Source of the DNA: Candidatus Methanomethylicaceae archaeon GD_Cm_T35_P0_bin.15
GTDB lineage: Archaea > Thermoproteota > Methanomethylicia > Methanomethylicales > Methanomethylicaceae
DNA: 64,000 bases
Direction of reading: 5' to 3'
Assembly (NCBI GenBank): GCA_038801785.1
Contig: JAULTD010000001.1
Location: 441,568 to 505,567, forward strand
The translations under genes were made by a program, and so were the position numbers. Below are positions 24,262-44,236 of the stretch, in pieces. The notes below the pieces were generated by a model, which was given only the letters and a program-made list of their open reading frames with translations, searched no databases and had not been told where the DNA came from. How positions within the stretch are numbered: position 1 is the stretch's first letter; each line of letters opens with the position of its first letter.

Positions 24262-24762
24262 CTACTGTTCGCGCTTCCCTGCTACAAGCACGAACCCCTT
24301 CACTATGGTAAGCACCGGCGGGATCATGAAGAGGAGCATCAGGTTTGTCAGGCGCAGCTGCAGCGCGGCGGTGACCGAGTAGGCGGGGATCATGTTCTCG
24401 GGAACGGCGATAGTTATGGCGCCTCCCTGGAAGGCGAGGTAGACGTAGGCGAGGAACAGGATGCCGAGGCCGGCGACGAAAAAGCCGTAGAGCTTCGATC
24501 CGCGGAGGAGCACCGCTGGGAAGGTGAAGGCTGCGATTAAAAGACCTGCCAGGGGAAGCATCGGGTGGATCAGGGCGGCGACCATCGGAGCTGCCGCGGC
24601 GAAGGTCCCGCCCATCTCCGGGAGGACCCTCGCAGCGAGCGCCACAAGGTTCGCCGGGACGAAGTAGAGGAAGAGGAAGGCCGCTGCCGCGAGTACGGCG
24701 CCGAGCACGGCGCGGAACGCGAGAGAGGTGCCCGTGAGTTCCAGATCGAGCAGCTTAGGCAT
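24262..24762 (-). CDS. Hypothetical polytopic membrane protein (4-5 TM)
   Basis: Hydrophobic 166-aa ORF. Its start overlaps the stop of the upstream surface protein by 8 nt. Confidence 0.5.
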   Translation of the reverse strand: MPKLLDLELTGTSLAFRAVLGAVLAAAAFLFLYFVPANLVALAARVLPEMGGTFAAAAPMVAALIHPMLPLAGLLIAAFTFPAVLLRGSKLYGFFVAGLGILFLAYVYLAFQGGAITIAVPENMIPAYSVTAALQLRLTNLMLLFMIPPVLTIVKGFVLVAGKREQ

Positions 24763-26013: not shown

Positions 26014-26625
26014 CTACACCGGTGCGTCAGGCGCGGGACCGCTGGGCGGGGGAGGGCTGCGCCTGAACCGCCTCGAGAGGGCGACCAGGGACGGTTTGAG
26101 CGGGAGGAAGCCCTGGTAGCGGACCGCGAAGGAGAGGGCGATGAGGAGGAGCGAGAGGAGGAGCCCCTCGGCGGTGAAGATCTCGGCGTCGAAGGTGGTG
26201 AACGTCGTGGGGGTATACGGCTGCTGGAGGAGGGCCAGCGTGATGGAGGGGGACGGGACGCTGCCGATGTGGATCGAGGACTGGAAGACGAGCCTGTAGG
26301 CGACGGGCGCGACGGGCCAGAAGAGCGGGGTGAACGAGGAGGTGAGGTCGAGGAGGACGTGGGACGCCCAGCCGGCGGCGAGGGCGAGGACGGGGTACTT
26401 GAGCTTGCGGGCGATGCGGGGCTTGGAGTTGAGGCGGAGGGCGGCGAGGGCGAGGAGGAGGGCGATCGAGGGGAGGAGGGAGTGGTCGATTGAGCGGTGG
26501 GTGTAGAAGAATATGTCGAGGTCGGGGAGCGTGGCGACGATGCCGATGGCGAGCGCCCACCTGAGGCGGAAGCCGAGGAGGGCGGCTACGGCGAACGGGA
26601 TGGCGAAGTGGAGGACGGGCTCCAT
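26014..26625 (-). CDS. DUF457/YdjM-like membrane-bound metal-dependent hydrolase
   Basis: 'HFAIPFA', 'LPDLD', 'HRSIDHS' and 'SHVLLDLTS' motifs. 203 aa. Confidence 0.5.
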   Translation of the reverse strand: MEPVLHFAIPFAVAALLGFRLRWALAIGIVATLPDLDIFFYTHRSIDHSLLPSIALLLALAALRLNSKPRIARKLKYPVLALAAGWASHVLLDLTSSFTPLFWPVAPVAYRLVFQSSIHIGSVPSPSITLALLQQPYTPTTFTTFDAEIFTAEGLLLSLLLIALSFAVRYQGFLPLKPSLVALSRRFRRSPPPPSGPAPDAPV

Positions 26626-26741
26626 ATAATCCCCAGCGGATAAGTGCGGCGGAGGGGGCTGATAAGCTTGATGGCGGGTGCGCCCGCAGAAAGGAGGGGC
26701 GGGCTATACGAAGATTAAGACGGAGAAGAAGAGGAAAGAGA

Positions 26742-27695
26742 TCAGGAGCCCGTTGTGTCTTTACTTTGGAACCACTTTACAGTCTCCTCCAGCCCTTCCC
26801 TGAGAGAGTATTCAGGGACGTAGCCGAGATCATTTTTCGCGCGTGTGATGTCCGCCACGGAGTGGAGCACATCGCCGGGGCGCGGCGGGGCGTACTCGAT
26901 GCCAGTGTTCCTGCCCGTTGCCGAGAAGACTTCGCGGGCAAGGTCGTTTATGGAGGTGCGGACCCCCGAGGCGATATTGTAGACGCCGGTCGCGCCAGAG
27001 GCGGCGGCGAGGATGTTGGCGCGGACGACGTCCCTGACGTAGACGAAATCGCGGGTCTGGGTGCCGTCGCCGTAGATTACGAGCTTCTCGCCGGAGAGGG
27101 CGCGGGTGATGAACTTCGGGATGACGGCGGCGTACTCCGATTGGGGATCCTGGCGCGGGCCGTAGACGTTGAAGTAGCGGAGGCAGACGGTGGGGAGCCC
27201 GTAGAGCTCGGTGAAGAGGCGGCAGTAGTGCTCCCCCGCGAGCTTGGTGAGGGCGTACGGGGAGAGGGGGCTGACGGGGAGGCTTTCAGAGAGAGGGAGG
27301 GTTTGGGCGTCGCCGTAAACCGCGCAGGAGGAAGCGAAGACGAACTTTTTGATATCACTGTCGCGGGCGGCTACGAGAAGGTTAAGGGTTCCGGTGATAC
27401 CCGCATCGTTGGTGCTGGCGGGATCGGATATTGAGCGGGGAACTGAGGGGATGGCGGCTTGGTGGAAGACGTAATCCACATCTTTCAGGATGCCGTTCAG
27501 GAAGGGGATATCGGCAAGGTTATTTTTTGCGAGTTTAACTTTATGAGCCTCAAGAAGGTCGGCGATATTGCGAAGGCTGCCAGTAGACAAATTATCGAGG
27601 ATAGTAACATCATTATGCGGAGATAACGCAATGCTCAAGCAAGAACCGATAAAGCCGGCTCCGCCGGTAATGAGAACCCTTTTGTCGCGCATCAT
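26742..27695 (-). CDS. NAD-dependent NDP-sugar epimerase/dehydratase (GalE/WbpP-like). Mosaic gene: the 5' ~270 nt are AT-richer than the rest
   Basis: 'VLITGGAGFIGS' Rossmann motif. Catalytic 'YALTK'. GC shifts at ~27420 inside the gene. Confidence 0.85.
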   Translation of the reverse strand: MMRDKRVLITGGAGFIGSCLSIALSPHNDVTILDNLSTGSLRNIADLLEAHKVKLAKNNLADIPFLNGILKDVDYVFHQAAIPSVPRSISDPASTNDAGITGTLNLLVAARDSDIKKFVFASSCAVYGDAQTLPLSESLPVSPLSPYALTKLAGEHYCRLFTELYGLPTVCLRYFNVYGPRQDPQSEYAAVIPKFITRALSGEKLVIYGDGTQTRDFVYVRDVVRANILAAASGATGVYNIASGVRTSINDLAREVFSATGRNTGIEYAPPRPGDVLHSVADITRAKNDLGYVPEYSLREGLEETVKWFQSKDTTGS

Positions 27696-27813: not shown

Positions 27814-29277
27814 TCATCTGCTATACAGAACCTCGAGTATGTATTTTGCGTAAGGGTAAAGCTGATCCAACTGTTTCCGGGACAGGAAAGCAGAAGATAC
27901 CTCGGCCAGGTCGGACTTTGACAGCAGGTTTAGCCGAGCATAAGCAAACATAGATATAGCTAGAATAACTAGTGTTCCGATAATCCAATTAATATTTAGA
28001 AAAATCATCGCGAGCGCTACTGACGAGGGGATTACTGCGAAGAGGAGAGAGGAATTCCAATCGATAGCATAGCCTATACGGCGGGCCATGAAATATACTG
28101 CGAATAATGCAACGAACAGACCTGAAATGTAGGCGAGGGCAGCACCATTATTACCATAAAGGGCAACCAAGATAGGGTAGAGGGCAATACGCGGTACATT
28201 GGTTGAGAAACCCAGCAGAGTAACGTATCGATAATGACCATATGCATAGATGAGGGAGTTGAAGCCGTAAGAGATCGGGGCGACAAGACAGCCTATCATG
28301 AGGAGCTGGAGGGTAAAGGATGCTTCGACATAAGATGCCCCGAGAAGAGAGAGGGGGACATAAGGGAAGGCAATGACCACAGCAGCCAAGGGGGCAATAA
28401 TGACGGAAGTAAGGCGGATTGACCTAGATGTAGAGCGCTTCCTCCCGTCGCGCATACCGCTCAATATAGGAAACATGAGACCTAGAAGAGACAGAGGGAG
28501 GGTGTAGACTATTTGCGATATCTGGAAGGCTATATAGTATGTGCCAGCCTGCGTTGCACCGGCTAAACCATAAACGCCGATTACGCCGAGCTGTGTGCCA
28601 GCAGTCAATACGAGGGAGGGAACCCAGGAGGGCAAACCTTGCCTGATCGATTCTTTTGCGAGGTGAAGACTAGGTTTTGTGGCTGACACCGTTCTTCGTG
28701 AGGCTAAGAGAAGTATAACGTCCTGAACCATACCTGCGATAATGAATGCTAGCATTACGCCCATAAAGCCAGTTTCAGCATATAGGAGAAGAAGCCCAAG
28801 AGCCAAGCGTGCTAATGTGGCGAGAATGGTAGAAAGCGCGATTATGTGGGTCTTCAATGTAGCATTGTAAAGCGCATTGGCGACTGGTGGAATGGAACCG
28901 AGTAGGAAGAGTGCCGTAATGAAGGGAATTGTGAATTGTGTTAAACCTATGAGAGTGCCTATTACAGATATAAATAAAGCGGCGGAGCCACTTACGGCCA
29001 AACTAGTTATGAATGCGGACGCGAAAACGGCGCTTAACCCTTTTCGATCATTGGAACCATATGCCTGACCAAACATACGTGTGGCGCCAGAGGAGATACC
29101 TAAACTGGAGATACTGGTTATGAGTGAGGCCAAGGCTATAATGGCGGCAGCATCGCCCACTATTGACGGATGCACAAATTGGGATGCAAGCAGCCAGAAA
29201 AGGTAACCTACAAAACTACTGACGATCCCGGAAATGTAGAGCCAGAAGCTGCCCCGTATTACTCGGTTAAGAGACAT
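27814..29277 (-). CDS. Wzx-like oligosaccharide flippase (MOP superfamily)
   Basis: 487 aa with ~14 TM segments. Low GC. Its 3' 320 bp are repeated at 31816-32137. Confidence 0.6.
   Translation of the reverse strand: MSLNRVIRGSFWLYISGIVSSFVGYLFWLLASQFVHPSIVGDAAAIIALASLITSISSLGISSGATRMFGQAYGSNDRKGLSAVFASAFITSLAVSGSAALFISVIGTLIGLTQFTIPFITALFLLGSIPPVANALYNATLKTHIIALSTILATLARLALGLLLLYAETGFMGVMLAFIIAGMVQDVILLLASRRTVSATKPSLHLAKESIRQGLPSWVPSLVLTAGTQLGVIGVYGLAGATQAGTYYIAFQISQIVYTLPLSLLGLMFPILSGMRDGRKRSTSRSIRLTSVIIAPLAAVVIAFPYVPLSLLGASYVEASFTLQLLMIGCLVAPISYGFNSLIYAYGHYRYVTLLGFSTNVPRIALYPILVALYGNNGAALAYISGLFVALFAVYFMARRIGYAIDWNSSLLFAVIPSSVALAMIFLNINWIIGTLVILAISMFAYARLNLLSKSDLAEVSSAFLSRKQLDQLYPYAKYILEVLYSR
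27815..28137. repeat. Copy 1 of a ~320-bp direct repeat (the 3' end of the flippase gene); copy 2 at 31816-32137. The central ~100 bp are identical
   Basis: Side-by-side alignment of the two stretches: a perfect core 'tattttgcgtaagggtaaagctgatccaactgtttccgggacaggaaagcagaagatacctcggccaggtcggactttgacagcaggtttag', with ~75% identity in the flanks. Confidence 0.9.
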
Positions 29278-29831
29278 TTACAAACGCACAGGTGTGACCT
29301 ATTCATTTAAGGGTTAATAAGATTACCATATCTAGAAACAATCCCTCGCACAGCTTTGTCGCCCTATAAAAATAAAGGGCTTCAGATCGTTTTTCGGCGT
29401 AAAGCCTTTGACAAGAACATAAGCCACTAAAATAAGCGAAAATACAACCCGTCTTAGTAGTTACATCCGCTATCAATCCAGTACCATCGACGTTAATTTT
29501 CCGCCTTCGCGTTCTCATCGTTTGTTAGAGGATCACTTTCTGGCAAATGTAGAGGGATGAAGATGATGCCTTTTTCGGCTATCCAATAGGAGCTTTTGGG
29601 GTAGACATTACAGGTTAAAGACTAATTAGTCTTAACTTTTTCTTTAGAACAGAGGGTAAAATAAGCCATAGCCGATGTAAAGCATGCGGGATTTTTAGTT
29701 TATTACTTAATATATATGGCATAAGCGCTTCTGAAGGCATGACTGCAAGAGACTTTTGTACGCGCACTTCAAGAGTTTTATTACGTTTGTGTCGGGCTTT
29801 AGTATATGAAGGGAGTACGGATTTCATTATG

Positions 29832-30287
29832 TTAAATACTAACAGATAAGTCTATGTACTTAAAGACCGGCATATGACGTCGGGCGTTATATGTTGTGCT
29901 AAGATTTCTAAAGAGTATGTAATCTGCAGGCAGTTCACCCTTGAACTCAAGATCTATCTGATGCAGACCGTCATCGTTATGAATAATGTTTGAATAACCA
30001 AAATCAAAGGCGTACCCAGACAATATCGGGATGGCCAGCTCATCCCTACGCCCAGTATCAAATCTCCTGATGAGTTCCTCATAATATTTCTTTGCAAGTC
30101 TAACACTTTGTTCAAAATAGTCTTGTTGATATAAGATTTCGATTGCGCGGTAAGCGAGTAAATCGCCTTCTATCCACTTGGACTTAAGCACAGGCTCATG
30201 TTTAATTAAGAACTCTCCAACACGGTACTCAGCCTTATTGGCAAGTTTCGCTTCCGTTTTCTTCTCCACATGAAGCTCTGGTTCCAA
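29832..30287 (-). CDS. Hypothetical protein (low-GC island)
   Basis: 151-aa ORF. Codon usage is consistent with its low-GC neighbours. No recognisable motif. Confidence 0.4.
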   Translation of the reverse strand: MEPELHVEKKTEAKLANKAEYRVGEFLIKHEPVLKSKWIEGDLLAYRAIEILYQQDYFEQSVRLAKKYYEELIRRFDTGRRDELAIPILSGYAFDFGYSNIIHNDDGLHQIDLEFKGELPADYILFRNLSTTYNARRHMPVFKYIDLSVSI

Positions 30288-30328
30288 ATATAACGTCGTG
30301 ATAGAGTGATTACTTCGTTTACGCTGAT

Positions 30329-31358
30329 TTATGAGAAATGTTTAGCGACCCATTTAGGCTCGGCGATTGATGAGGAATTAGTTCCAGCGAGTATAAGAAA
30401 TGACTTTGCAAATTCCCTAAGTAGCCCGGCATGAGACAGAGTTTTAACAGCAAGAGCTTCATTAAATAAATACTTCCTAGTTAAATCTCCGGAGAACGGA
30501 GTAGAAATCCAGTTATGTAAATAGTAATTTTCACCTTCATCAACATCACTAAATAGAGTAGTAGCAAATCTGTAATCCGGGAAACAATAGTAATGTTGTA
30601 ATTTGGAAAAACCGGCTAATTTCAGTTTCAAGTCTAATTCCCTTTTGCTAAAAGTGATTATCCCGGGTTTACTTGGGGATCCTTCGATACCATTAAAGAA
30701 CTTCCCAGTGAGATCTTCAGTGTAGCCACACCAGTATTTAATGCCCAGCCTATCTTCAATAGCGAGAACAAGAATCCCGTCAGGCCTTAGCGCGGTTTTT
30801 GCGTGTTTCAATACCAATAAAGCAGATCTCTCGGGCTCTGCAATATCAACAATTTTAGGTGAATACTCCAATACGCCGACTAATACCACAAGATCATACT
30901 CGGGCTTAAAACAAATGCGCATAAAATCAGAGTTATAAATTGTAACATTCTGTAAATCTCTGCACCTTTCACGAGCGATTTTTGATCGGATAAAAGACCC
31001 TTCTACACCTACCACATTACGAAAGTTTTCACCCAAATATCGAGTGATGGCCCCACATCCAGAGCCTAATTCCAGAACATTTAGCGCTTTAGGTAAATCA
31101 AGAGCTTAGTATATTTGAGCGCCCCATGCCGAGGTGACATCGAGTCGGCCAATCGCAAGTTTTCCTTTCGAGCTCTTCCGAATTATCTCGCAAATCACTA
31201 GCATTTTTTAATATGGCATATATTTGATTTTCAGTAAATGCACCATCGGAATATGTGAAAGAACGTTTATCATCAGTTAGAACATAAATACCGCTCTCCC
31301 AATCATAGGTAAAATCGTCAAGGGCATAACTGCCGTTAGTTTTCACCGAAGACACCAC
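30329..31358 (-). pseudogene. Class I SAM-dependent methyltransferase split by a frameshift near 31098-31110 (N-terminal 86-aa ORF 31098-31358 plus C-terminal 235-aa ORF 30329-31036)
   Basis: SAM motif I 'VLELGSGCGAITRYLG' lies in-frame with the downstream ORF but directly after a stop codon and before any start codon. The upstream ORF ends 1 nt out of frame. Confidence 0.55.
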
Positions 31359-31764
31359 ATAACACCTTATACTAAGCTAGATTTATTGGAACTTTAGCAT
31401 TTATAAAAAGAGGGGGTAATCCCGCATATTTTAAAAATACGCCTCACAAACGGATTAAAACACTAAGATCCTCATCGCGCGATTAAGAGCATATCCAACA
31501 TAGTGATTGGACCATCACTATCGATCAAACACGGCGAGTATTGAGTGAAGCGAAGGGTTCCGCAATTTAATTCGTGAAGTGAGCATCAGAAAAGATGAGT
31601 CGGCCAAGCGACAGGCTAACAATCAGAACATCCGCAGACACGGGGGTAAGAAAGATTAGTCCGCAGATACTGATGCGATCATCACGTTAGAATCAAACGT
31701 TCTCAATCATATATTTTGCAGATCATGCGCGACCTGAGGATAGAACTTTTGGAAGTTTAGTGTC

Positions 31765-32266
31765 TTAAACCGTTACTCTCCCCTCGAAGGGCAGAAGGCG
31801 GATCAAACCACAATTCATCTGCCGTACAGAACCTCTATAATATATTTTGCGTAAGGGTAAAGCTGATCCAACTGTTTCCGGGACAGGAAAGCAGAAGATA
31901 CCTCGGCCAGGTCGGACTTTGACAGCAGGTTTAGTCGAGCATAAGCAAACAGAGACGGCCAGAATAACCAACGTTCCAATAATCCAATTAATGTGTAGAA
32001 ACACCATCATGAGCACTACTGATGAAGGGATTGCTGCAAGGATAAGGGAGGAGGCCCGACAGGCAGTATAGCCTATGCGGCGGATCATGAAGTATACCAC
32101 GAACAACGCAACGAATAGACCTGAGATGTAGGTGAGGTTGCGGATCCTCCCGGTGGAGAGGCCGTCAAGGACGGCGACCTCGTTGGAAAGGGAGAGCGCG
32201 CGGGCTAGGCAGGAGCCGATGAAGCCTGCCCCGCTGGTGAGGAGGATCCTTTTTGCTGCGTATCAT
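31765..32266 (-). pseudogene. Chimeric remnant: epimerase 5' fragment (32110-32266, frameshifted at an A5 run) fused to a flippase 3' fragment (31765-32106). Both are diverged duplicates of the genes at 26742-27695 and 27814-29277
   Basis: The translation 'MIRSKK(I)LLTSGAGFIGSCL..' matches 'MMRDKRVLITGGAGFIGSCL..'. '..VYFMIRRIGY..IPSSVVLMMVFLHINWIIGTLVILA' matches the flippase C-terminus. ~100 bp are identical at the nucleotide level. Confidence 0.7.
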
Positions 32267-32329
32267 AAGGTCACCTCAGACATTAATGGTGTAAAAGTAT
32301 TAAAAAGAACCTATGCTTGGATCTGAGCG

Positions 32330-32405
32330 GGGCAGAAAGCGAAGGGCGCTTGAGAACGGGATGGCGAATCGAAGGACGGGCTCAATATAATCCCCACCTA
32401 GTCAT
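32330..32405 (-). pseudogene. Remnant of the 5' end and upstream region of a DUF457 hydrolase gene (duplicate of 26560-26640)
   Basis: 'gaacgggatggcgaa.tcgaaggacgggctcaatataatcccc' matches 'gaacgggatggcgaagtggaggacgggctccatataatcccc' at 26585-26630. Confidence 0.55.
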
Positions 32406-32529
32406 TGCGGCGGTGGAGCCGATAAGCTGTGAGGTGGCAGGGCACCTTCAGTGGGGGCTACCCAAGATATTGAGTTGCTCCTTTTTAGTCTCAGGGCATC
32501 AGTGAGGATACGCAGTGTGCACGTCAACC

Positions 32530-33483
32530 TTATTTAATAATTTGTTTCCTAAATGCGCGTATTCTGCATATGGCAGCATATAAAAACCCAGCGAACCCGC
32601 TTGCATAAACTATAAACTCATCTAGGTTATCGAACTTATCGCCAGCATGAATTCTTTTCAGTTTGAGCGGATGAGTATCATGTGTATTAAACCCAAAATC
32701 GACAGTTAGACCAAAGTCATATCCCGCAGCCATACACAATTGAACCTCTCTATCAGAATAGTCGCCGTTTGGATATGCGATTGCGTTTATGATCAGACCA
32801 TACTCTTTTTCGAGTATGCGTTTCGAGGCAAATATTTCATCGTATGCTTCGTCAGTATTGCATTGCGTTAAGCAAGGATGAAATAAAGTATGAGACTGAA
32901 AGTTTACGTAGGGCAACATTTCGTAAATTTGCTTTTTTGACAAAGCGTGTGGAGTGTCATAGCCTTTTTCATTTTCGAACCCAATCTTCTTCAGGATTTG
33001 GAGTCGTTTATTATTTGAAACTTTTTTCAGTTGCTCAGTTGTAAGCGGCAGATATGCTTCGTTAGATTGTGCTTCTTTGAACCAAAAGTGTCTGTTAGTA
33101 TTTGCAATACCAGAACATAGGAATATTGTTATTGGAACACCATACTTTTTAAATATCGGAAGTAGATCGTAGTTGCTCTTATGCCCGTCATCGAAGGTGA
33201 TCACAAGTGATTTTTTGGGGAAGCGTTCTTTTCTTCTGTATAAATCGAAAAATTCGTTTAAGCTTATTATCTGGTAATTATTCACCAAGTATCTAAACGT
33301 TTTTTCTGCATTCTTAGGATCAATTTCATGAAAGAAGAGTATAGTAACTCTATTTTTTTGAAGGGTCTCCCTAAATATAAAAGGCAACCCCGAGAACCTA
33401 AGGCATAGATATATAAGGCGTCTGATCCGAATATTTTGCCTCGCATAAACCAGCAACTTGGTTAACACCTCTGAAATCGACAT
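32530..33483 (-). CDS. Polysaccharide deacetylase (NodB-homology, CE4 family)
   Basis: NodB motif 'VITFDDGHKSNYD'. Conserved His/Asp pattern ('HTLFHP'). Low GC (~35%). Confidence 0.8.
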   Translation of the reverse strand: MSISEVLTKLLVYARQNIRIRRLIYLCLRFSGLPFIFRETLQKNRVTILFFHEIDPKNAEKTFRYLVNNYQIISLNEFFDLYRRKERFPKKSLVITFDDGHKSNYDLLPIFKKYGVPITIFLCSGIANTNRHFWFKEAQSNEAYLPLTTEQLKKVSNNKRLQILKKIGFENEKGYDTPHALSKKQIYEMLPYVNFQSHTLFHPCLTQCNTDEAYDEIFASKRILEKEYGLIINAIAYPNGDYSDREVQLCMAAGYDFGLTVDFGFNTHDTHPLKLKRIHAGDKFDNLDEFIVYASGFAGFLYAAICRIRAFRKQIIK

Positions 33484-33504
33484 AGTTTGATCGCTAGTCG
33501 CGCT

Positions 33505-34593
33505 TCACCACACGTCTGACTGAAAAAGAGACCAACTCTCACTAAATCTCGTGTCAACTCCACCAACGAAATATGCACTGTCGTTGAAATTAGAAGAGAT
33601 GGGCTTGATTAATAGGCCAGGGAGTTTGCTTTTACCGACTAATTTCATCGCTTTTAATAATCGTACCATTCTATCGCCAGAATATTTAAAACCACTTTTC
33701 CGAAAGTTCAATAACTCCCCCTGATTACGAGTAAAGACAGGCACCAGTATACTGGGGACCAATACTTTTTCAGATATTCCTTTGATTAGACGTATAAAGT
33801 GGTCCGACTTTAAGTATGCATATTCCATCAATGAATAATATTTATTGCTAGTTTTTTGCAATGCAAGATAGCCAGTAGTTTTACCTCCTTCTCTACTATA
33901 TGCATAAACATGTTCGTAAGGACTCCCCCCGAATCGCCAAGTATAAAATTCTTTGTCTCTGATATTGCGAATCTTACTCTTTTCCGTGAATGATTGCATT
34001 AAACTATATATCTCACTAATTTTTAATTCATTTGTAATCTCAAACATTACATTGTTTCGTTCAGACCTGATTTTAGCATCTGAATCACTCTCATAAATAA
34101 GCTTTTTCAAGCCATTTACTGGATAAAAAGAGTACATGTATTCCCGTTCACCCACAGAAATGAAGCCACACTTTAGGTAACCAGCGGTAGATGCTTCATT
34201 TGACGAAAGGCTTAGTAAAAATCGAATATTCGAATTTTCACGCATATCTTCGAAAGCATAGTTAGTAAGGCTGGAAAAAAGTCCTTGCCGCCTAAAATCT
34301 GGATGAACGATTGTGTCAGCTGAAATTCCGACCAAGAATTCGTCACTATTGCAGGTAAGCTTCTGAATTACAAAAGAACGCTGAGCGATAATACGATCCC
34401 CATAGAGAACGAGATATCTAAACGGTCTTTTAGTGTAGGGGTTGCTTTCATAAATCCACTCAACTAACTTTTTCCTCTCATTGAAATTTTTATTTCGCCA
34501 TTGAAGGCCTAGAAATTCAACTAGTTGATCTTTTAAACTAGAATCGTACCTACAGATGCGGACTTTAGGCATATCTTGCATTCCCCTTAGCAA
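33505..34593 (-). CDS. GNAT-fold acyltransferase, two-lobed (FemAB/CelD-like) family
   Basis: 'HPDFRRQGLFSSL' GNAT motif A. 362 aa. Very low GC. Confidence 0.5.
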   Translation of the reverse strand: MLRGMQDMPKVRICRYDSSLKDQLVEFLGLQWRNKNFNERKKLVEWIYESNPYTKRPFRYLVLYGDRIIAQRSFVIQKLTCNSDEFLVGISADTIVHPDFRRQGLFSSLTNYAFEDMRENSNIRFLLSLSSNEASTAGYLKCGFISVGEREYMYSFYPVNGLKKLIYESDSDAKIRSERNNVMFEITNELKISEIYSLMQSFTEKSKIRNIRDKEFYTWRFGGSPYEHVYAYSREGGKTTGYLALQKTSNKYYSLMEYAYLKSDHFIRLIKGISEKVLVPSILVPVFTRNQGELLNFRKSGFKYSGDRMVRLLKAMKLVGKSKLPGLLIKPISSNFNDSAYFVGGVDTRFSESWSLFQSDVW

Positions 34594-34854
34594 GTCTTAA
34601 CCATCAAAGCATCAACAGATAAATAAAAGATCTAAATTGTTCTCCACCTATCTTTTGTGGTAAATCATTGATAGTTTTAGCCGAGACTTCATTTTACTCG
34701 ACTATGTTTTATGTCTTTGCATTTGTATAATCTCCCCGTTTTTTCAACAGGAGTTTTGTTACGCCAAGCCAGCCCTCGACTCTATACGATGCTGTAGAAA
34801 CATCAGATATGAGTTTATTAGGTGTTTTATGTTCGCAAGCTATGCTAGTCAAAT

Positions 34855-35949
34855 CTAAAGATTTTCTATGACGGAGTTAATCTTATTAGATATTTTTTTC
34901 CAATCAAACAAGTCAACTGCCAATTTGCGAGATTGCTCAGACATTTTACAAAGCTCTTCATCGGATAACGCCTTAAGATATCGAAAGCCTTCAATAAGAT
35001 CGACGCACTTGTTAGAACGAGCTACAAAACCACAGCGATATTGTCTTGTTAAAAAGGATGCGTCACCGACATCAGTTACTAAAACGGGCTTTCCCATTGC
35101 CACATATTCAGCGAATTTTGTAGGAGCGGCTACGGCAGTTGCTACGTTAATTGGTCTTGGCAAAACCAAGACGTCGCAAGCCGCATAATACTTGGGAATC
35201 GCCTCTCTCGACATGCTTGGCAGCTTAATAATATCGCGCTTCCTCCAAACAGAATTACCACCGACTATAAGAAAAGCAAACCGTTCATCGTTTGTTGCAT
35301 GTGCAGCGTTAATAAATTCTTCAACTCCTTGCCAAGGTTGCATACCACCAATGTAACCTATCACGAATTTCTTATCAATACCAAGCCTAGTACGTGTTGG
35401 TTGGGCTCCATCGCCAATAGGTTTGAATCTCTCCAAATCGACGCCATTAGTTATATATTCCATTTTATCATAACTAGTGTCATATCTGATTCGATTATAT
35501 TGCATCATAGTTTTAGAAACACAAAAAACTTTATCAGACGTCTCCAAGGCAATTTTCTCCATTAAAAGAGCGGTGTTTGACAATATGTTTTTTTTCCAAT
35601 AGTCATTAGAGAGCAATAGTTCATCCCGAGCATAACCATGCATATCAAATATTTGTGGTACGCGTTTAACGCGTAAGCAAGAAAGGAAAGCAGGCAAACA
35701 CCTGTTTGCAAAAATCAGTTGGGGCGAGTGTTTGCGTATCAAAGCGTTTATTTTTACTGCTGCATCTAGTCTAAATCTAGAAACAGCCATAGTTTCATCA
35801 AAGTTATTATCGGTTGTTCGCCTGGTGCTTAAATTAATTAACTTAACATCATGGTTAAATGATTTAAGCATCTGCGTAATCTTTAATATGCGTATCCACA
35901 TCGAGTCTTGGGGATCACATGGGCCTATACAAATTGAAAGAATTTTCAA
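34855..35949 (-). CDS. Glycosyltransferase family 4 (GT-B, retaining)
   Basis: C-terminal 'FAEYVAMGKPVLVTDVG' (E-x7-E-like) and 'IGGMQPWQG' are typical of GT4. Confidence 0.8.
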   Translation of the reverse strand: MKILSICIGPCDPQDSMWIRILKITQMLKSFNHDVKLINLSTRRTTDNNFDETMAVSRFRLDAAVKINALIRKHSPQLIFANRCLPAFLSCLRVKRVPQIFDMHGYARDELLLSNDYWKKNILSNTALLMEKIALETSDKVFCVSKTMMQYNRIRYDTSYDKMEYITNGVDLERFKPIGDGAQPTRTRLGIDKKFVIGYIGGMQPWQGVEEFINAAHATNDERFAFLIVGGNSVWRKRDIIKLPSMSREAIPKYYAACDVLVLPRPINVATAVAAPTKFAEYVAMGKPVLVTDVGDASFLTRQYRCGFVARSNKCVDLIEGFRYLKALSDEELCKMSEQSRKLAVDLFDWKKISNKINSVIENL

Positions 35950-36255
35950 TTTTAATACTTTAATTAAGTTTTTTAAATATACGATATATCAAGATAAAGT
36001 TATCGTGGGTCTCCGGCATATATTGCATGTAATGAGGCGTTATGCAGAATAACCCTTCTTATGCAGCTCATAGTAGTAACACTAGACACGCGTACAGATT
36101 AGTTACAAATACAGGCACGAAAACGGAGGGTCTTTCTGCCAATAGAACGGCGCTCTCGACCCAATATCTATAAGATTAGAATTGCTAAACTAAAGAGATA
36201 GTTATAAAGGAGGGCATCATCTATAAATTTAGAGGCATAATTTAAATAAAAACAG

Positions 36256-38430
36256 TTATCCCCATATTTCGGAATATCCATTATCGTATAACTTATTTTC
36301 GACCTCTAGTCGATCAAGATAAACATTAAGCGGAAAGGCGACGGCTGTCGAATCTACACCTAATTTTTCAATAACGTTATAATACCTAAGGAAGACATGA
36401 CCAACTGTGCCGTCTTGTTCAAAAAAAGTTATGATATGACGGATGCTCGCAGGAGGGATGCCCCCCTGACTTATTAATCGAGAAGCACTGCCAGAATCAC
36501 AATAAATTATTGTTCCTTCAACCATCTGATTGCTTAACCAACTACTAGCACGAGATTCACCAGCATGGACATACCTTAAATGATAATCAGCGCCTGTGGA
36601 ACTCAACTGTACAGTACTAGGTTGGTTAAACAATTGATAGTGAAGACCACTAGTTACGGCAAAATAGGGAATTAAAACGAGAAGTATGATAAAGACGGCC
36701 CTCTTCATTTGGAATAATTTCGCTATTCGTATACCACCGAGAACGAAAAAAATAGATAGAACAGGCGTCATCATGAAAAAGAGACGGCCCATATCGTATA
36801 CTTTGAGACATAAAGGCACTACCACAGATACCATCAATATTGCAGAACAAACGCAAGATAAGATGAAAAAGCTAAAATCAAGTTTGGATTTTAGAAAAGG
36901 AGATTCAGATTTATGAGAAATAGGTAATGGATAACGCTTTATTAAAATACTAATTATACCTACCCCAATAAAGGCGATTGCCGCCCAAGAGGAGATGCCC
37001 TCTATCACGTACGGAATGCCTTTCGTAAATTTGGCGCCAAAAAGAGATGTCGCACCGCCGCGCGAACTAACATTAAAGAACTCATCGAAGCCCGTCAGAA
37101 TGCTATAAAAAGCGTGTGTGCCAACCTCAAGAGGGGCATAAGTAACATAACTGTACCAAATAAAGGCGATCACGGAACAACTGGCGATTACTTTTATTGA
37201 GATGGGATTTCCTGCATATTTTAGTGGGTTTGAGTCACGATCATCTAATTTACATGAGAGATCTAAGTTTGCTTTTCTAAAATTGTAAATAAGATTAACC
37301 GCTATCCACATAAATATAAGAATACCGAGGAAAATATAGGCGCTAGTATAATGCGACACAACGCAAGAAAAGGCAAAAATAACTAACAAAATGTTTTTTT
37401 TAAAGGTATGTATTTTATCATTAAATAGAACCAGAATAAAAATAGCAAAAAAGAGTATTGCAATATTAGTCCGGGCGCTAGCAGCGGTATTGAAATAAGC
37501 ATATTGTGAGATAAAAAAGAATGCGGCTAAATAAGAGTAAAAGTTTGTCAAGTATCTTCTCGATATGCTATACACCGCCAAGGGCGAAATTGAAAAGAGG
37601 AGGGGATACAATATTTTGAAAAGCGATTCGCTTTCCAGATTCAGAAACTCTAGGTAAACCGTGGGGAGCAGAGTAACGCTCAAGCAGGCATTTAGAATAT
37701 TGTTTTCGAACATTTCCCAGTGTTGAGCTTGGAAAGTTTTACGGAAGAAGTAGTATTCCCGATGTGTATCAATGCCGATTATAAAATCTGACCTTAAACT
37801 CAGCAATATCATAACAGAGATGCCTATGAGGAGCAGACTTAAGGGATAAACTCTGTCGGAAATCGATTTACGCCATACAGACATTGAGATTAAATAAAAA
37901 CATATAAGTAGTAGAAGGGCGATGGACATAACGTTATTATTATGTGTATTAAACACATAACTTCCAAAAACTCCGAGCAATGGAAATATACCAGCCACAA
38001 GTAAAGCGAATTTATCATTCATAGAAATGACTGGGTTAGGATAAGGCATACGATCTGCACCACGGTTTCGCAAATAAGAGAGAACCAGCAACACGATAAC
38101 AACCACATTAAATGGACCGAGGAGAGAGGATATAGCTAAAGGCGTGTTTGAAAATAAGGATCCTATCGAATTCATAATTAATCCAAAACATATCGAGAAA
38201 GCTATGCTTAGAGCTACGCTTAAGACGATTTTTTCAGTCACTGTAAGAGCGGGGATTTTTAGCCTAGAAAGAATAAGGGCGCCAGGGAGAATGGTTAAAA
38301 GAATAAAACCTGAGACCTGCCTAATAATTGGGATGTCAAAAATAATGCTGGCATTCGAAACTACTAAAAAGTTTAGTATAACTATTAAGTACATGCACGA
38401 TTTCGATTTCCAGCCTAATTTCAGCTTCAT
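36256..38430 (-). CDS. Large polytopic membrane protein (>=14 TM) with a C-terminal ~170-aa extracytoplasmic domain; candidate glycan polymerase or ligase
   Basis: 724 aa. Hydrophobic throughout the first ~550 aa. Located inside the glycan cluster. No WWDYG motif, so it is not called AglB. Confidence 0.45.
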   Translation of the reverse strand: MKLKLGWKSKSCMYLIVILNFLVVSNASIIFDIPIIRQVSGFILLTILPGALILSRLKIPALTVTEKIVLSVALSIAFSICFGLIMNSIGSLFSNTPLAISSLLGPFNVVVIVLLVLSYLRNRGADRMPYPNPVISMNDKFALLVAGIFPLLGVFGSYVFNTHNNNVMSIALLLLICFYLISMSVWRKSISDRVYPLSLLLIGISVMILLSLRSDFIIGIDTHREYYFFRKTFQAQHWEMFENNILNACLSVTLLPTVYLEFLNLESESLFKILYPLLFSISPLAVYSISRRYLTNFYSYLAAFFFISQYAYFNTAASARTNIAILFFAIFILVLFNDKIHTFKKNILLVIFAFSCVVSHYTSAYIFLGILIFMWIAVNLIYNFRKANLDLSCKLDDRDSNPLKYAGNPISIKVIASCSVIAFIWYSYVTYAPLEVGTHAFYSILTGFDEFFNVSSRGGATSLFGAKFTKGIPYVIEGISSWAAIAFIGVGIISILIKRYPLPISHKSESPFLKSKLDFSFFILSCVCSAILMVSVVVPLCLKVYDMGRLFFMMTPVLSIFFVLGGIRIAKLFQMKRAVFIILLVLIPYFAVTSGLHYQLFNQPSTVQLSSTGADYHLRYVHAGESRASSWLSNQMVEGTIIYCDSGSASRLISQGGIPPASIRHIITFFEQDGTVGHVFLRYYNVIEKLGVDSTAVAFPLNVYLDRLEVENKLYDNGYSEIWG

Positions 38431-38460
38431 GTTTGTAGATTAAATAAGTTTTCCCACCGT

Positions 38461-39642
38461 CTAACCATGTTCAACTATAACCGCTCGATACAGTTCTTCG
38501 ATCTCATTAAGAACGCTATTGAGAGAAAATTTAGAGCCCACCATGCTTCTTGAACGTTCCCCCATAATGCTACATTGTTCAGGATTACTTAGGAGATATG
38601 TCATTTGTGTACACAACTCGGAGACGCTACCATCTTTAAAAATTAACCCTGTTATGCCATCTTGTACAAGGTCTTGCATGGATTCTACATCTGACGCGAT
38701 AACAGGTCTAGAACAAGCATTAGACTCTAGCACCACCATAGGAAAAGCCTCATATCTGGAAGGCAACACTACAAACTCGGAATCAACGTATGCTTCGAGC
38801 TTTTCTCGACCATACAGAGGACCTGTCAACAATATAAAGCGATCCAACCCTAGGTAGTTGATTAAACCCTCGATTTCTGCACGATAGCCATCATCAGGAC
38901 CTGCAATCACAAGCCGAATATTTGTCAATCCTGTACGATTAATCAGTTGTGCGTAGGCCTTAATGAGAATATCAACACCTTTAATCCGATGAAGGCGGCC
39001 TATAAACAACACAATTCGTGCATCATTAGATAGACCTAATTTTCGCTTAAAGAAGTTCTTGGGAGGGAGTTCACCGTATGTCGAAAGATCGACGACATTA
39101 GGAATAATAGCTATTTTTTCTTTGGGCACCCCTATTTGCATATATTGCATTGCCTCAGAAGTTGTTAATGCAATACATCTCGAAGCCGATTTCATTATTC
39201 GATAACCGACTGAATAATCATAGATGGCTTTGAGCCATCCTTTCCCCATCATTCGTGGGAGCGATCCATGAGCCTGAAAGAGGAAGGGGATGCTATATTT
39301 CTTAGCGTAAAAAGCTATGAGATTCTGGAATGTCGGGTGTCCGTGCAAGTGAATCAAATCAAATCGCTCTGACCTGAAAGATGTGACCAACTCAGGGGTT
39401 ATGAAAAGATTCAAGTTTTTTACGAGCGCCATTGACAAATTACGCATGTACCGTACCTTCACTCCATCTATATTTTTTTTATTTTCAGGAATTCTAGTAA
39501 CGCGATCCTTGGCGTCAGAGGTAAAAACAGTTACATCATGCCCTCTTTGGCGTAATCCTTTAGAAATCAGATAGGCACTTGTCGCCACTCCTCCAAAGGA
39601 ATGAGCGGGAACAAAAAACGGTGCTACGTGAAGGATGCGCAT
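38461..39642 (-). CDS. Glycosyltransferase family 4
   Basis: 'EAFPMVVLESNACSRPVIASD' E-x7-E motif. GT-B N-terminal 'MRILHVAPFFVP'. Confidence 0.88.
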   Translation of the reverse strand: MRILHVAPFFVPAHSFGGVATSAYLISKGLRQRGHDVTVFTSDAKDRVTRIPENKKNIDGVKVRYMRNLSMALVKNLNLFITPELVTSFRSERFDLIHLHGHPTFQNLIAFYAKKYSIPFLFQAHGSLPRMMGKGWLKAIYDYSVGYRIMKSASRCIALTTSEAMQYMQIGVPKEKIAIIPNVVDLSTYGELPPKNFFKRKLGLSNDARIVLFIGRLHRIKGVDILIKAYAQLINRTGLTNIRLVIAGPDDGYRAEIEGLINYLGLDRFILLTGPLYGREKLEAYVDSEFVVLPSRYEAFPMVVLESNACSRPVIASDVESMQDLVQDGITGLIFKDGSVSELCTQMTYLLSNPEQCSIMGERSRSMVGSKFSLNSVLNEIEELYRAVIVEHG

Positions 39643-39689
39643 CCCTAGAACGATCTGACTCGATCGGCTCTAGTCATGACCTCGGCGCT

Positions 39690-39900
39690 AAACATCTACA
39701 CTAGTCCAGTAGTCCACATTCCATTGGGGCACACTGCCCACCACGGAGTAGGTTTCCTGCGGGGATGTGAAGGCATACTGAACGCTGACCCAAGAATCAG
39801 CAATAGTCGCATCGACTGAAGATTCGCTCGGTACTGCAGGGACGGCTCCAAGTGAGGCAATTACTGCAAGTATTAGTAAAAAAGAATACTCGCCTCAAAT
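39690..39900 (-). pseudogene. Decayed 5' fragment of a DUF1616-family gene (paralog of 45266-46294); start codon mutated ATG->ATT
   Basis: The translation '..LILAVIASLGAVPAVPSESSVDATIADSWVSVQYAFTSPQETYSVVGSVPQ' matches 'LALAVIASLGAVSAVQGAPADATIAGSWASVQDAFVSLQDAYAVAGSVPQ'. Nucleotide alignment confirms it. Confidence 0.65.
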
Positions 39901-39997
39901 TCAATCTACATTAGTAAGCGTACGTTTTTGAGCATAACCTTCAACAAAAAGATTTCTCAAGAAGGTCTTTTATCAATAGGGGCACCAAACTATAGTT

Positions 39998-41002
39998 TCA
40001 GGTTTTTAGGAGATTAACTAAAGAGCATTTTATCCAAGAAAGAGGTCTAATAGCCAAATGATCAAATAAGTAAGTGGGCAAATTTACGCCTGTACACAGC
40101 TTAGTTATTCTATCCATTTCATCTGCGTTCAGGATGATATTAGGCGCCTCAGCGTTTGCAGCAACCTGATCCTCTGTCAGTGCTGCGGGTATTGGGGTAA
40201 ACCCCTTGTTAATAATGTAGGCTAACGCTAGTTGAGCGATACTCACCCCTCTTTCCTCAGATAGATTGCCTAGAAACTCAAACAAGGGAGTCGCTTTTTT
40301 AAGAAGAGATTGACGATTTACAAAATTAAAGGCCCTCGCCCTATCTTTTGCTAAGCGTTTGGCGTCATATTTGCCAGTCAATATCTCTCCTGCCAAGGGG
40401 CTGTAGCTAATTATTTCAATAGAATGTTTCTTGCAGTAGGGAATTATCTGTTGCTCTGCTCGTCTTGATAGAAGATTATATTCTATCTCATTAGCTATAA
40501 TTTCGCAGGAGGTTAAGTTCTCCTGAGCCCGTTCTAAGAGATAGCTACAGAAATTACTCACTCCAATATATCTAATCTTACCTTTTTTAACTAAGTATTC
40601 TAGAGTGCGAAAGGTTTCCTGGAATCTTATGAGGGGATTGGGATAATGTATAAGATATAAATCAATGTAATTTATACCTAATCGCCTCAGGCTACCATCA
40701 ACGGCTTTCACAATGTTATGCGATCTTAAATTCCATGGAGCGACCTTTGATACAATAACATAATCTTCCCTTTTGTAAGGTTTTAAGGCGTTGCCAAGCA
40801 ATTCTTCTGCTTTACCATTGCCATATGTTTCAGCAGTATCAAAGAAGTTGATGCCCTCATCCATACAACGACGAACAACTCGAACAATGGTATCATCAGA
40901 ATAGCGAATGCCGTGACCCCAAGCGCTGCAACCAAACTGACCTGATCCTTGACCCACTAAAGAGGTTTTTAAATCACTCTTACCAAATTTGCGATATTTC
41001 AT
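39998..41002 (-). CDS. Aldo/keto reductase family oxidoreductase
   Basis: 'FFDTAETYGNGKAEELLG' and 'IRYIGVSNF' are AKR signatures. Confidence 0.88.
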   Translation of the reverse strand: MKYRKFGKSDLKTSLVGQGSGQFGCSAWGHGIRYSDDTIVRVVRRCMDEGINFFDTAETYGNGKAEELLGNALKPYKREDYVIVSKVAPWNLRSHNIVKAVDGSLRRLGINYIDLYLIHYPNPLIRFQETFRTLEYLVKKGKIRYIGVSNFCSYLLERAQENLTSCEIIANEIEYNLLSRRAEQQIIPYCKKHSIEIISYSPLAGEILTGKYDAKRLAKDRARAFNFVNRQSLLKKATPLFEFLGNLSEERGVSIAQLALAYIINKGFTPIPAALTEDQVAANAEAPNIILNADEMDRITKLCTGVNLPTYLFDHLAIRPLSWIKCSLVNLLKT

Positions 41003-41050
41003 GGTTATACGATTGTAGACGCGATATTACTTAAGCACGAAATGATCGTT

Positions 41051-42325
41051 TTACCGTCTTTGTATAGGAGTTCTTGAAGCTTTAGAGCGACTGTGACGCA
41101 GATTGTCTAATTCTTTTTCAAACATTTCAACGAGGACGCTCCAATCATTACTTTCGATAGCCCTGCGAGCTTTCTCGCCCTCTTGTGTAATTAATTTGCC
41201 TTTAAGAGCGTATGCCTTTTCCACGACTTCTTCTGGATGATCAATATAGACAATACCGCTGCTCTCCCCAAATTCTTTTTGTATGCCAGGCAGCCTTGTG
41301 GCAATCACGGGCTTACTAGCGGCCATATACTCATACATTTTAATAGGAACAATATTTTGCATTACTACTTCATCAAGATATGCAGGTAAAAGACAAATAT
41401 CTGATGCAGACAGATAATCAAGAATCAAGTCAAACGGTTGCTTTCCAACAAGGATTAAGCGGTCTGCAAGATCATAAATATCACGAATTTTACAGAGATC
41501 AAAATAAGCTTCCCCCTCTCCGACGATCAGCATTTTCAAATGGCTTTTTGAGCGTTTAGTGTTAGCTAGACTTAAGGCAACTTCTTTTAATCCAGAAAAG
41601 CTATAGAGCCACCCCATAAAAAAGAGGACGATGTCGGCATCATCGATCTTGTATTTTACTCTTATTTCAGCTCGTTTTTCTGGATTTGGTCTATAGCGGC
41701 TCAGATCCACACCGCCAGGGATAATGACGACTTTAGCTGGATCTGCGCCCATCAATCTTACATAATCTACAAGACCTTTGTTTATTACAATAATTCTGTC
41801 CGACCTTTTTAGCACTGTACTCTCAATCGCTTTAGCGAGCGGTTGCCCTATTTTCTGGGGCACCAATGTATGCAAATGGTCTATCAGATAGTAAACGAAC
41901 GGGATACTCTTTTTCTTACACATATGTGACGCCAAATATGCATTAAGTATACCAAACGAGACGACTACATCAGGTCTAAATTCGTTAATCTGTTTTTCAA
42001 GCTCCAAGCGATGACTAAGTACCAGTGAGATGTACTCCAATAGGGGTAGTTGCACTATTGCAGGTCTGATCAAATCGATCTTTCCTTGTGGGACTACTTT
42101 CCAGCATCCATTGAATACCTCGCGTTTCTTTAAAAAGCGGTATTTTTTGTTTCTCCATAGTATGTCATAATCAATAACACGGATGTAATGGCCTCTCTCA
42201 GATAATCTCTCCATAAGGTGATGTTGTTGATGGGGGCCTCTCTCGATCCAATTCGATTCTTGCAGAACGAGTATGCGCATCTCAGAATTCGCAGGAGCGT
42301 TGGATCTCTGTCCAGTTATTAGCAA
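41051..42325 (-). CDS. Glycosyltransferase family 4
   Basis: GT-B fold. 'YEYMAASKPVIATRLPG' C-terminal motif. 424 aa. Confidence 0.75.
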   Translation of the reverse strand: MLITGQRSNAPANSEMRILVLQESNWIERGPHQQHHLMERLSERGHYIRVIDYDILWRNKKYRFLKKREVFNGCWKVVPQGKIDLIRPAIVQLPLLEYISLVLSHRLELEKQINEFRPDVVVSFGILNAYLASHMCKKKSIPFVYYLIDHLHTLVPQKIGQPLAKAIESTVLKRSDRIIVINKGLVDYVRLMGADPAKVVIIPGGVDLSRYRPNPEKRAEIRVKYKIDDADIVLFFMGWLYSFSGLKEVALSLANTKRSKSHLKMLIVGEGEAYFDLCKIRDIYDLADRLILVGKQPFDLILDYLSASDICLLPAYLDEVVMQNIVPIKMYEYMAASKPVIATRLPGIQKEFGESSGIVYIDHPEEVVEKAYALKGKLITQEGEKARRAIESNDWSVLVEMFEKELDNLRHSRSKASRTPIQRR

Positions 42326-43292
42326 ACCAGCGGTAAGTCTTGTTCAAGCCCACTTTAAACTCAGTTGTAGGATTATAATGCAATATCTTCTTTGCTTTCT
42401 CTATAGAGGCTAGCAACCTGAACTTCTGATCCCAGTCTCTTCTCTCCCTATATATAATTCCAGCATGATTTCCAGTAATCTCGTTTACCCAAGCAGCTAG
42501 ATCGTTTATCTTTATTTCGCGATTTGTGCCGAGATTGATTGCTTCACCAATAGCATCCTCGTAATAGGCCATTGCCAACAAGCCGTTTACGATATCACCC
42601 ACGTAAGTGAAATCACGAGTTTCTTCTCCAGTCCCTGTAATAGGCAAAGGTTGCCGATTCATGGCCCAATAGAAAAAGTTCGGGATTACATTACGATATT
42701 TGCCTGGAACCTCTCCCGGACCATAAGAGTTGAAGAATCTAGCGTTCACTATAGGCAGATCGTACAAGTTATAGTAACAATTAGTGTAGAGCTCACCTAA
42801 CATCTTAGTGACTTGATATGGCGTATACAATTTCATGGAAACATCGTGCTCTTCGAAGGGCATCTTTGAATCCGAACCGTAAATACCGCAACCGGAGGAA
42901 GAGTATATGAAACGCTCCACTCCAACAAGATGTGAGTATTCGAGCATCCTCAAAATCCCCATTCCGTTGACCATTAAATCTGTCTCAGGATTATCGACCG
43001 AATTCTGATTGGCAAAATGGGCCGCCAGATGGTATACGATTTCAGGTTTTCTTTTGAACGCCCGTCTGAGGTACTCTTCGTCCAATACACTGCCTTTAAT
43101 AAACCGTATCTTTTGTCCACGGGGAACATTCCACTCGTATGAGGAAGAAAGGTCATCCAAAATGATGACTTCTTTTGTATCCAAGGTGTTGAGTGTTCTG
43201 ACCAAATTTCCTCCTATAGCACCTGCTCCGCCTGTTACCAGAACAGTCTTTCCTTTAAAGGAGTTTTTTACTTCTTCCATGTTAATCACCAA
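42282..43292 (-). CDS. NAD-dependent NDP-sugar epimerase/dehydratase (extended SDR)
   Basis: 'VLVTGGAGAIGGNLV'. Catalytic 'YQVTK'. Confidence 0.85.
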   Translation of the reverse strand: MVINMEEVKNSFKGKTVLVTGGAGAIGGNLVRTLNTLDTKEVIILDDLSSSYEWNVPRGQKIRFIKGSVLDEEYLRRAFKRKPEIVYHLAAHFANQNSVDNPETDLMVNGMGILRMLEYSHLVGVERFIYSSSGCGIYGSDSKMPFEEHDVSMKLYTPYQVTKMLGELYTNCYYNLYDLPIVNARFFNSYGPGEVPGKYRNVIPNFFYWAMNRQPLPITGTGEETRDFTYVGDIVNGLLAMAYYEDAIGEAINLGTNREIKINDLAAWVNEITGNHAGIIYRERRDWDQKFRLLASIEKAKKILHYNPTTEFKVGLNKTYRWFANNWTEIQRSCEF

Positions 43293-44226: not shown

Positions 44227-44236
44227 ACGAACCTCC

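Follow-up and report, generated by a model that had tools for sequence, protein, structure and literature searches.

Gene relics at conserved junctions of a strain-variable surface-glycan island in an uncultured Methanomethylicaceae archaeon

The window analysed here comprises 64,000 nucleotides from Candidatus Methanomethylicaceae archaeon GD_Cm_T35_P0_bin.15 (Thermoproteota; contig JAULTD010000001.1, positions 441,568 to 505,567). Its GC content is 60-68% except in a block at ~29-44.5 kb, which has 36-43%. A low-GC glycan-synthesis island of ~17.6 kb is located here. At the hydrolase-proximal end of the island, intact genes for a Wzx-type oligosaccharide flippase, a NAD-dependent sugar epimerase/dehydratase and a YdjM-family membrane hydrolase are accompanied by truncated remains (stubs) of all three and by a methyltransferase-domain pseudogene (Table 1). 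All genes discussed are on the minus strand. The dead fragments most probably arose by serial addition or swapping of cassettes at conserved junction genes, followed by decay, in a surface-glycan island that varies between strains.

Table 1. Coordinates of intact genes, relics and boundaries in and around the glycan island (positions of the window).
Feature	Position	Strand	Evidence or content
YdjM-family (PF04307) membrane hydrolase, intact	26014..26625	-	Pfam E 2e-11; first core-genome gene beside the island
Island/core boundary	26669	.	44 nt upstream of the hydrolase ATG
NAD-dependent sugar epimerase/dehydratase, intact	26742..27695	-	PF01370, E 5e-65
Wzx-type oligosaccharide flippase, intact	27814..29277	-	PF01943, E 4e-10; last 325 nt (27814-28138) are repeat copy 1
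Methyltransferase-domain pseudogene, ~570 aa	29615..31358	-	four frame pieces: 86-, 235-, 151- and 70-aa open reading frames (ORFs)
Flippase 3′ stub (repeat copy 2)	31815..32137	-	~residues 381-487; 2-nt deletion near 31956
Epimerase 5′ stub	32138..32266	-	codons 1-44; promoter-like stretch may reach ~32315
Hydrolase stub	32354..32434	-	44-50 nt of upstream sequence (promoter/ribosome-binding site) and 11 codons
Live part of the low-GC (36-43%) glycan island	32530..44257	-	Pfam, composition
GT2 glycosyltransferase, far island edge	44237..45214	-	PF00535

A direct repeat of the flippase 3′ end had been proposed in an initial annotation of the window, and blastn of 31300-32700 against the whole window bears it out. 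Positions 31815-32137 match 27814-28138 with 84.0% identity over 325 bp (1 gap, E 6e-98), and a repeat finder recovers the same pair. The core had been described as ~100 identical bp between flanks of ~75% identity. Its longest exact run is 92 nt (27842-27933 and 31843-31934); over 114 nt of core the copies differ in three columns, while the identities are 76.5% in the 5′ flank (43 differences in 183 nt) and 79% over 28 nt in the 3′ flank. The similarity ends two bases past the flippase stop codon. Low complexity was checked as a source of the similarity and excluded, as the repeat is ordinary coding sequence. The intact flippase scores 39.9 bits against PF01943 (gathering cutoff 28.2), and its homologues are full-length (487 aa). 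Those with names are recorded as oligosaccharide flippase (NCBI records of metagenome-assembled genomes, MAGs) or as O-antigen/teichoic acid export membrane protein (JGI). They come from MAGs of Candidatus Methanomethylicus and Methanosuratincola and show 46-55% identity. The repeated gene is thus classed as a flippase of the Wzx/Polysacc_synt family with a predicted role in transport. At the nucleotide level it is 85% identical to the alleles on the 223-kb JGI contig L006 and on L004, a contig of the same sequence type, and 83% to the allele on L005 from another NCBI assembly. Exact-protein look-ups of the flippase and of the island deacetylase matched no record.

In the second copy of the repeat, the 2-nt deletion puts the conserved flippase tail into another frame, and tblastn finds the two parts in two frames at 73% and 93% amino acid identity. 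At the amino acid level the stub is 84% identical to protein P0003, 83% to P0001 and 79% to P0002. Its nucleotide identity is 88% to the L005 allele vs 84% to the resident gene. From these values it is taken as a fourth allele of the same clade. A 113-aa ORF with a TTG start at 31765-32106 is a by-product of the stub frameshifts and has no Pfam match.

The flippase stub is fused in frame to the epimerase stub: epimerase codon 44 is joined to flippase codon ~381 at 32137/32138 (...GRIRNL/TYISGLF...), where the motif TCGCC is present in both present-day parent genes. An epimerase fragment with a frameshift had been predicted at 32110-32266; fragment and frameshift are confirmed, and only the limit at 32110 has to be moved, to 32138. 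In the corrected frame (32253-32134) the stub reads KRILLTSGAGFIGSCLARALSLSNEVAVLDGLSTGRIRNL, of which 26 of 40 residues are identical to residues 5-44 of the intact epimerase (65%, E 8e-16). An extra A in a run at ~32250-32254 brings it out of frame with its own ATG. The stub has a GC content of 63.6% vs 46.9% in the matching part of the intact gene. It is of the window/L005 type, not of the L006 type, and does not belong to the other island epimerases. The intact epimerase is ~83-90% identical to the L005 allele and 75% to that of L006.

The intact epimerase itself shows a step in composition at ~27480 (window 27441-27500), from ~46% GC (46.5%) in the first 215 nt to 61-63% thereafter, and the L005 allele has this step as well. 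An old recombination breakpoint common to both lineages could be the cause, or else a property of the gene. A chimeric origin of the intact epimerase, with the stub as its native 5′ end, was considered and dropped as speculation: the GC step is real but also occurs in L005, and is hence not genome-specific.

Upstream of the epimerase stub follows a fragment of the hydrolase transcription unit. The initial annotation had recognized it and placed it at 32330-32405; the fragment stands, the coordinates do not (Table 1). It matches 26593-26668 with 81.6% identity (blastn, E 2e-14) and L004 14229-14310 with 81.7%. The start codon has changed from ATG to ATT (32384-32386), and the translation (IEPVLRFAIPF...) stops after 28 codons. 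An extension of the homology beyond +33 was rejected, because its score was attained by 72 of 1000 shuffles. The junction with the epimerase promoter is placed within ~32320-32353. The ATT codon, the additional A in the epimerase stub and the 2-nt deletion in the flippase stub exclude that the fragments are intact small genes, which had been named as a possible refutation. The stubs most probably have no function of their own. Along the coding strand their order is hydrolase 5′, epimerase 5′, flippase 3′, scrambled relative to the intact genes as had been described. For the intact hydrolase, the exact protein is present on the Logan contig L003; the nearest relatives in reference genomes, two among the matches listed, belong to other Thermoproteota (45% identity).

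The DNA between the repeats was overlooked in the initial annotation and is largely dead. It contains a methyltransferase-domain gene broken by at least three frameshifts. Mapping by tblastn with eight homologues of 519-606 aa located the pieces in alternating frames: residues ~12-89 at 31322-31101, 84-347 at 31105-30332, and 345-490 at 30341-29901. A fourth piece, residues 507-565 at 29851-29666, is given by a single weak high-scoring segment pair of 31 bits, with P0046 only. In an exhaustive profile-free search, the homologues of the 151-aa ORF were mostly 520-620 aa long and matched at their residues ~380-490. The first start codon that the 235-aa ORF could use lies downstream of the S-adenosylmethionine-binding (SAM) motif I. 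The defect was formerly explained by a simple TAA nonsense mutation, a reading given up for frameshifts once full-length homologues had been mapped. Non-coding DNA of ~450 nt and ~340 nt flanks the pseudogene. No evidently intact gene is present in 29278-32529, and the ~3.2 kb at 29.3-32.5 kb are pseudogene debris. A tblastx search with 29278-31814 gave no match, neither in the other loci nor elsewhere in the window. The only locus with a methyltransferase homologue from the word search, L009, has an unrelated context with a helicase-nuclease. Rfam and tRNA scans detected nothing in the stub region. The 235-aa and 151-aa pieces are stored as separate proteins from NCBI and Logan sources in the protein collection searched.

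Comparison with L006/L004 reveals that the locus exchanges cassettes, as the initial annotation had assumed. From 26669 down to 16018 the contigs are 99.7% identical to the window over 10.6 kb, and therefore belong to the same species. Exactly at 26669 the identity falls to unalignable. Beyond, a wholly different island occupies the same place, and 44257-29291 of the window has no nucleotide similarity to it. Both islands encode GT4/GT2 glycosyltransferases, a deacetylase, a flippase and an epimerase. The order in L006/L004 is glycosyltransferases, flippase (85%), a 131-nt hydrolase fragment, epimerase (75%), UDP-glucose dehydrogenase and hydrolase. At the far edge, 44832-44257 in the GT2 gene is 91% identical to L004 1-576, and the similarity ends at 44257. 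L004 ends inside the GT2 gene. This side stands at 91% vs 99.7% on the hydrolase side in a conspecific contig. The lower value suggests a divergence gradient, so homologous crossovers, on the GT2 side only.

The hydrolase fragment in the conspecific island is a relic of its own. L006:7222-7352 (L004:11499-11629) covers nt +37 to ~+170 of the hydrolase gene and shares ~92% identity with the intact gene, which follows 2.8 kb further downstream. It begins 34 nt past the flippase stop, at a TAG common to the hydrolase sequence, and is a 65-aa ORF in the source annotation. An independent hydrolase 5′ relic in a conspecific with an unrelated island marks the hydrolase edge as a recurrent recombination end-point. 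In the window, the homology of the hydrolase stub begins at 32434, the equivalent of the boundary at 26669; the alignments with L004 start at 14229 for the stub and 14234 for the resident gene. Three different upstream neighbours, an epimerase, a UDP-glucose dehydrogenase and a deacetylase, abut one conserved unit of hydrolase promoter and gene. From the start of the homology at the boundary and the three neighbours, the hydrolase stub resembles a right-hand flank that belonged to a different island version. On L005 the order is DUF2206, methyltransferase, flippase, spacer and epimerase, without stubs, and the contig is collinear with the intact flippase-epimerase module of the window (83%). 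The flippase-epimerase spacers of window and L005 were tried as decayed hydrolase relics like that of L006, and rejected with scores attained by 430 and 751 of 1000 shuffles.

The divergence of the stubs from the resident genes amounts to 16% for the flippase (flank 23.5%), ~30% at the nucleotide and 35% at the amino acid level for the epimerase, and 18% for the hydrolase, in comparison with 0.3% for the core flank of the two strains. The flippase stub is nearest to the allele of another genome. The stubs are therefore remnants of imported or older versions of the cassettes, and a recent duplication in place is not their source. Deletions in one collinear duplicate cannot produce the order hydrolase 5′, epimerase 5′, flippase 3′, which implies at least two separate joins between different modules.

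These values also bear on the origin favoured in the initial annotation, a second, diverged copy of the resident locus. In that scenario an in-place duplication of the flippase-epimerase-hydrolase unit would have been followed by loss of most of the second copy and by gene conversion that homogenized the core. The copies of the repeat are only 4 kb apart, and the core is more alike within the genome (3 differences) than between genomes (6-11 in 114 nt), as expected from such an event. The identity of the flank (76.5%) is, however, lower than in all pairs from different genomes but one, the flippase stub has its nearest allele on L005, and the divergence of the hydrolase stub reaches 18% vs 0.3% for the conspecific core. 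The scrambled order would need at least three copies, and the GC content of the epimerase stub (63.6%) departs from that of the resident 5′ end (46.9%). A recent tandem segmental duplication would leave collinear copies closer to each other than to the alleles of other genomes, and this is not the pattern found. Descent from a local duplicate is improbable, and the claim of relics of a second resident copy is not supported in that form.

Serial cassette addition or swapping would proceed between the GT2 gene and the promoter of the YdjM hydrolase, where island versions circulating in the population would be exchanged or added by recombination. An incoming version would recombine via the genes common to all versions: the flippase 3′ end, the epimerase 5′ end, and the hydrolase promoter and 5′ end. 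One end may sometimes join illegitimately and leave a stub of the junction gene of the donor or of the former resident. Redundant genes would then be lost through microhomology deletions and frameshifts. For the present arrangement, three steps are proposed. The block 44.2-32.5 kb would have arrived with the first ~80 nt of a donor hydrolase transcription unit. An older module, epimerase ... flippase - methyltransferase, would have lost its middle by the deletion that joined the two stubs, presumably at a short shared motif. The live flippase-epimerase module would now be the sole source of a flippase. Homology-anchored import with an illegitimate other end, followed by internal deletion, may thus account for the locus.

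Several points weigh against this account. The order of events and the mechanism of one-sided homology are deductions, and TCGCC at 32137/32138, shared by the present alleles, is a candidate microhomology. The stubs could already have been relics in the donor and have arrived as one block. Two other island versions were recovered, with no intermediate arrangement among them. A search with the 44-aa epimerase stub, limited by the word index, found no intact relative of the GC-rich stub. Continuity across the 92-nt core is given by the source assembly, and the Logan unitigs break there.

These unitigs, built from SRR25293830 and 100% identical to the window, are L003 (27871-16014), L007 (43456-31905) and L008 (31872-27904). 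They confirm every stub junction and the pseudogene. All three end inside the 92-nt core, which leaves room for an assembly artefact: two strain variants may have been collapsed or chained via the core into a tandem arrangement present in no single cell. The graph also fits a direct join of L007 to L003, with L008 elsewhere or circular. The junctions between hydrolase and epimerase stub and between epimerase and flippase stub are nevertheless inside the single unitig L007, and L008 contains both ends of the pseudogene; an artefact thus cannot explain the scars themselves. The path L007-L008-L003 is the only linear one that uses each unitig once, and an island without L008 would have no flippase. 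A repeat of 92 nt is also shorter than usual read lengths, and reads can span it. A chimeric assembly is accordingly improbable.

The conservation of the flippase core is not peculiar to the genome studied. Between alleles of different genomes the core is 90-95% identical vs 78-86% in the adjacent flank, and it encodes the C-terminal tail YARL.L...D..E..SAFLS...L...YPY.KY.L..LYG, which is kept in homologues of 50-60% identity. Judged from the alignments, the identical core is a common trait of all four alleles. This weakens the recent gene conversion proposed initially, yet does not remove its basis. The two copies within the genome are closer in the core than any other pair (3 differences in 114 nt), yet among the most different in the flank (43 in 183 nt). 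From a core/flank ratio of ~0.4 in the other five pairs, ~11 core differences would be predicted instead of 3 (post-hoc Poisson P ~0.006). Conversion or crossing-over within the core is weakly supported, possible and not required.

A function of the relics as dedicated recombination or regulatory sites would give the flippase 3′ core and the hydrolase promoter stub a different meaning. Reversible excision of the 4-kb segment with the flippase is one example, a stub promoter driving the flippase operon another. Four alleles with 14-24% difference over the neighbouring 183 nt of the flippase gene agree to 90-97% in the core, the hydrolase stub retains exactly the part with promoter and ribosome-binding site, and hydrolase relics occur in two island versions. 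All this would fit, although the core corresponds to a tail conserved at the protein level. Excision would remove the only flippase, the Rfam scan of the region was without a match, and no recombinase was detected among 20 ORFs scanned with Pfam (24.2-46.3 kb). A dedicated element is very unlikely. A related proposal takes the hydrolase promoter/5′ end and the ~115-nt flippase 3′ core as fixed junctions for an integrase-free addition or swap of glycan cassettes, in which the 92-nt repeat permits reversible loss or excision of the 4-kb segment. It is based on the hydrolase 5′ relics in two island versions, on the three contexts at the -44 boundary and on the unusual nucleotide conservation of the core. 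If true, surface variants would be generated in a modular, recombinase-independent manner; the proposal is a long shot.

O-antigen and capsule loci of enterobacteria and pneumococci are a close comparison for replacement-type glycan islands. Flexible islands of the replacement and additive kinds are well established for exposed glycans (PMC3698932), and in the features tested the present locus conforms to the replacement type, with an additive element. The islands of window and L006/L004 are at the same chromosomal position, with 99.7% identity over 10.6 kb on the right and 91% in GT2 on the left, compared as far as GT2. Their content differs and is of related function, the GC content is atypical (36-43% vs 60-68%), and mobility genes are absent from the scanned ORFs. 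The O-chain, exopolysaccharide and flagellar-glycosylation islands of Alteromonas likewise share one site and conserved flanks, and have wholly different contents in near-identical strains (PMC3698932). Atypical GC, glycosyltransferases with a Wzx flippase, the lack of a detected integrase or tRNA gene and the sharp drop of similarity at the flank are further common features. In contrast to the Alteromonas islands, the host is an uncultured Thermoproteota archaeon, the island has grown by addition with junction-gene stubs and a dead cassette kept inside, and the hydrolase-side flank is without a divergence gradient.

Sequential displacement via homology-facilitated illegitimate recombination, which leaves orphan gene ends, has been proposed for type VI secretion system (T6SS) and Rhs loci (PMC5361080). 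As in the T6SS effector-immunity arrays of V. cholerae and in Rhs C-terminal displacement, a conserved gene segment serves as the anchor for imported modules, the ends of displaced genes persist as orphans next to the live gene, and successive events build up an array of relics. Here, however, the orphan flippase 3′ end is upstream of the live gene and followed by the methyltransferase-domain pseudogene, not downstream. Toxin/immunity pairs are lacking, so no selection keeps the orphans; the relics are frameshifted debris, and the mechanism is one of inference. The locus is thus not a C-terminal displacement array of the Rhs, contact-dependent inhibition (CDI) or T6SS type. Nor is it an integron-like or site-specific cassette system, since the scanned ORFs include no integrase and the stub junctions no inverted-repeat site. 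Among archaea, strain-variable glycosylation clusters are known in Haloferax (PMC5867893). The agl clusters and glycosyltransferase islands of haloarchaea (Haloferax, PMC5867893; Haloquadratum, cited therein) resemble the present island in that surface-glycan clusters vary between close strains and recombine. They belong to a different phylum, and junction-gene stubs of this kind are not described in PMC5867893. An AglB gene was not identified by Pfam on the island ORFs, and no wider search for AglB was made in the window.

In many prokaryotes, the loci for cell-surface glycans are the main regions that vary within a species, a variability thought to be driven by virus pressure. For such loci the findings are ordinary biology, new only for the archaeal host lineage, and they indicate no new mechanism. 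Island turnover, including scars at conserved junction genes, also operates in an uncultured Thermoproteota archaeon, and two strains with 99.7% identical flanks carry unrelated islands. For annotation, the debris at 29.3-32.5 kb should not be entered as genes, the island boundary is fixed at 26669, and the repeat is flagged as breaking short-read assemblies. The practical value is modest.

The live island genes encode a polysaccharide deacetylase, a GNAT acetyltransferase, three GT4 glycosyltransferases, a DUF2206 membrane protein, an aldo/keto reductase and two epimerases. A second flippase was not present among the Pfam-scanned island ORFs (32530-44257). Integrase and transposase domains were not detected by Pfam in the 20 ORFs at 24.2-46.3 kb, and no tRNA gene is located within ~10 kb of the locus. 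The only tRNA gene, at 15038-15171 on the minus strand, was recognized by Rfam (52.6 bits, 134 nt, presumably with an intron); ARAGORN found none in the window.

A second direct repeat is present in the core flank, at 19974-20069 and 24274-24374 (81% over ~100 bp). Its second copy forms the 3′ end of a gene for a 166-aa membrane protein (24262-24762, minus strand), and the copies bracket ~4.2 kb including a PIN-domain gene and a patch of 49-50% GC. The arrangement is identical in the conspecific L006 and is therefore older than the divergence of the two strains. This repeat, too, has the look of an insertion scar like those of the island. An ORF of 458 aa (20352-21728, minus strand) adjoins the PIN-domain gene in the core flank and is weakly similar to the flippase (23% over 320 aa, E 0.002); it possibly encodes another transporter of the MATE/Wzx superfamily.

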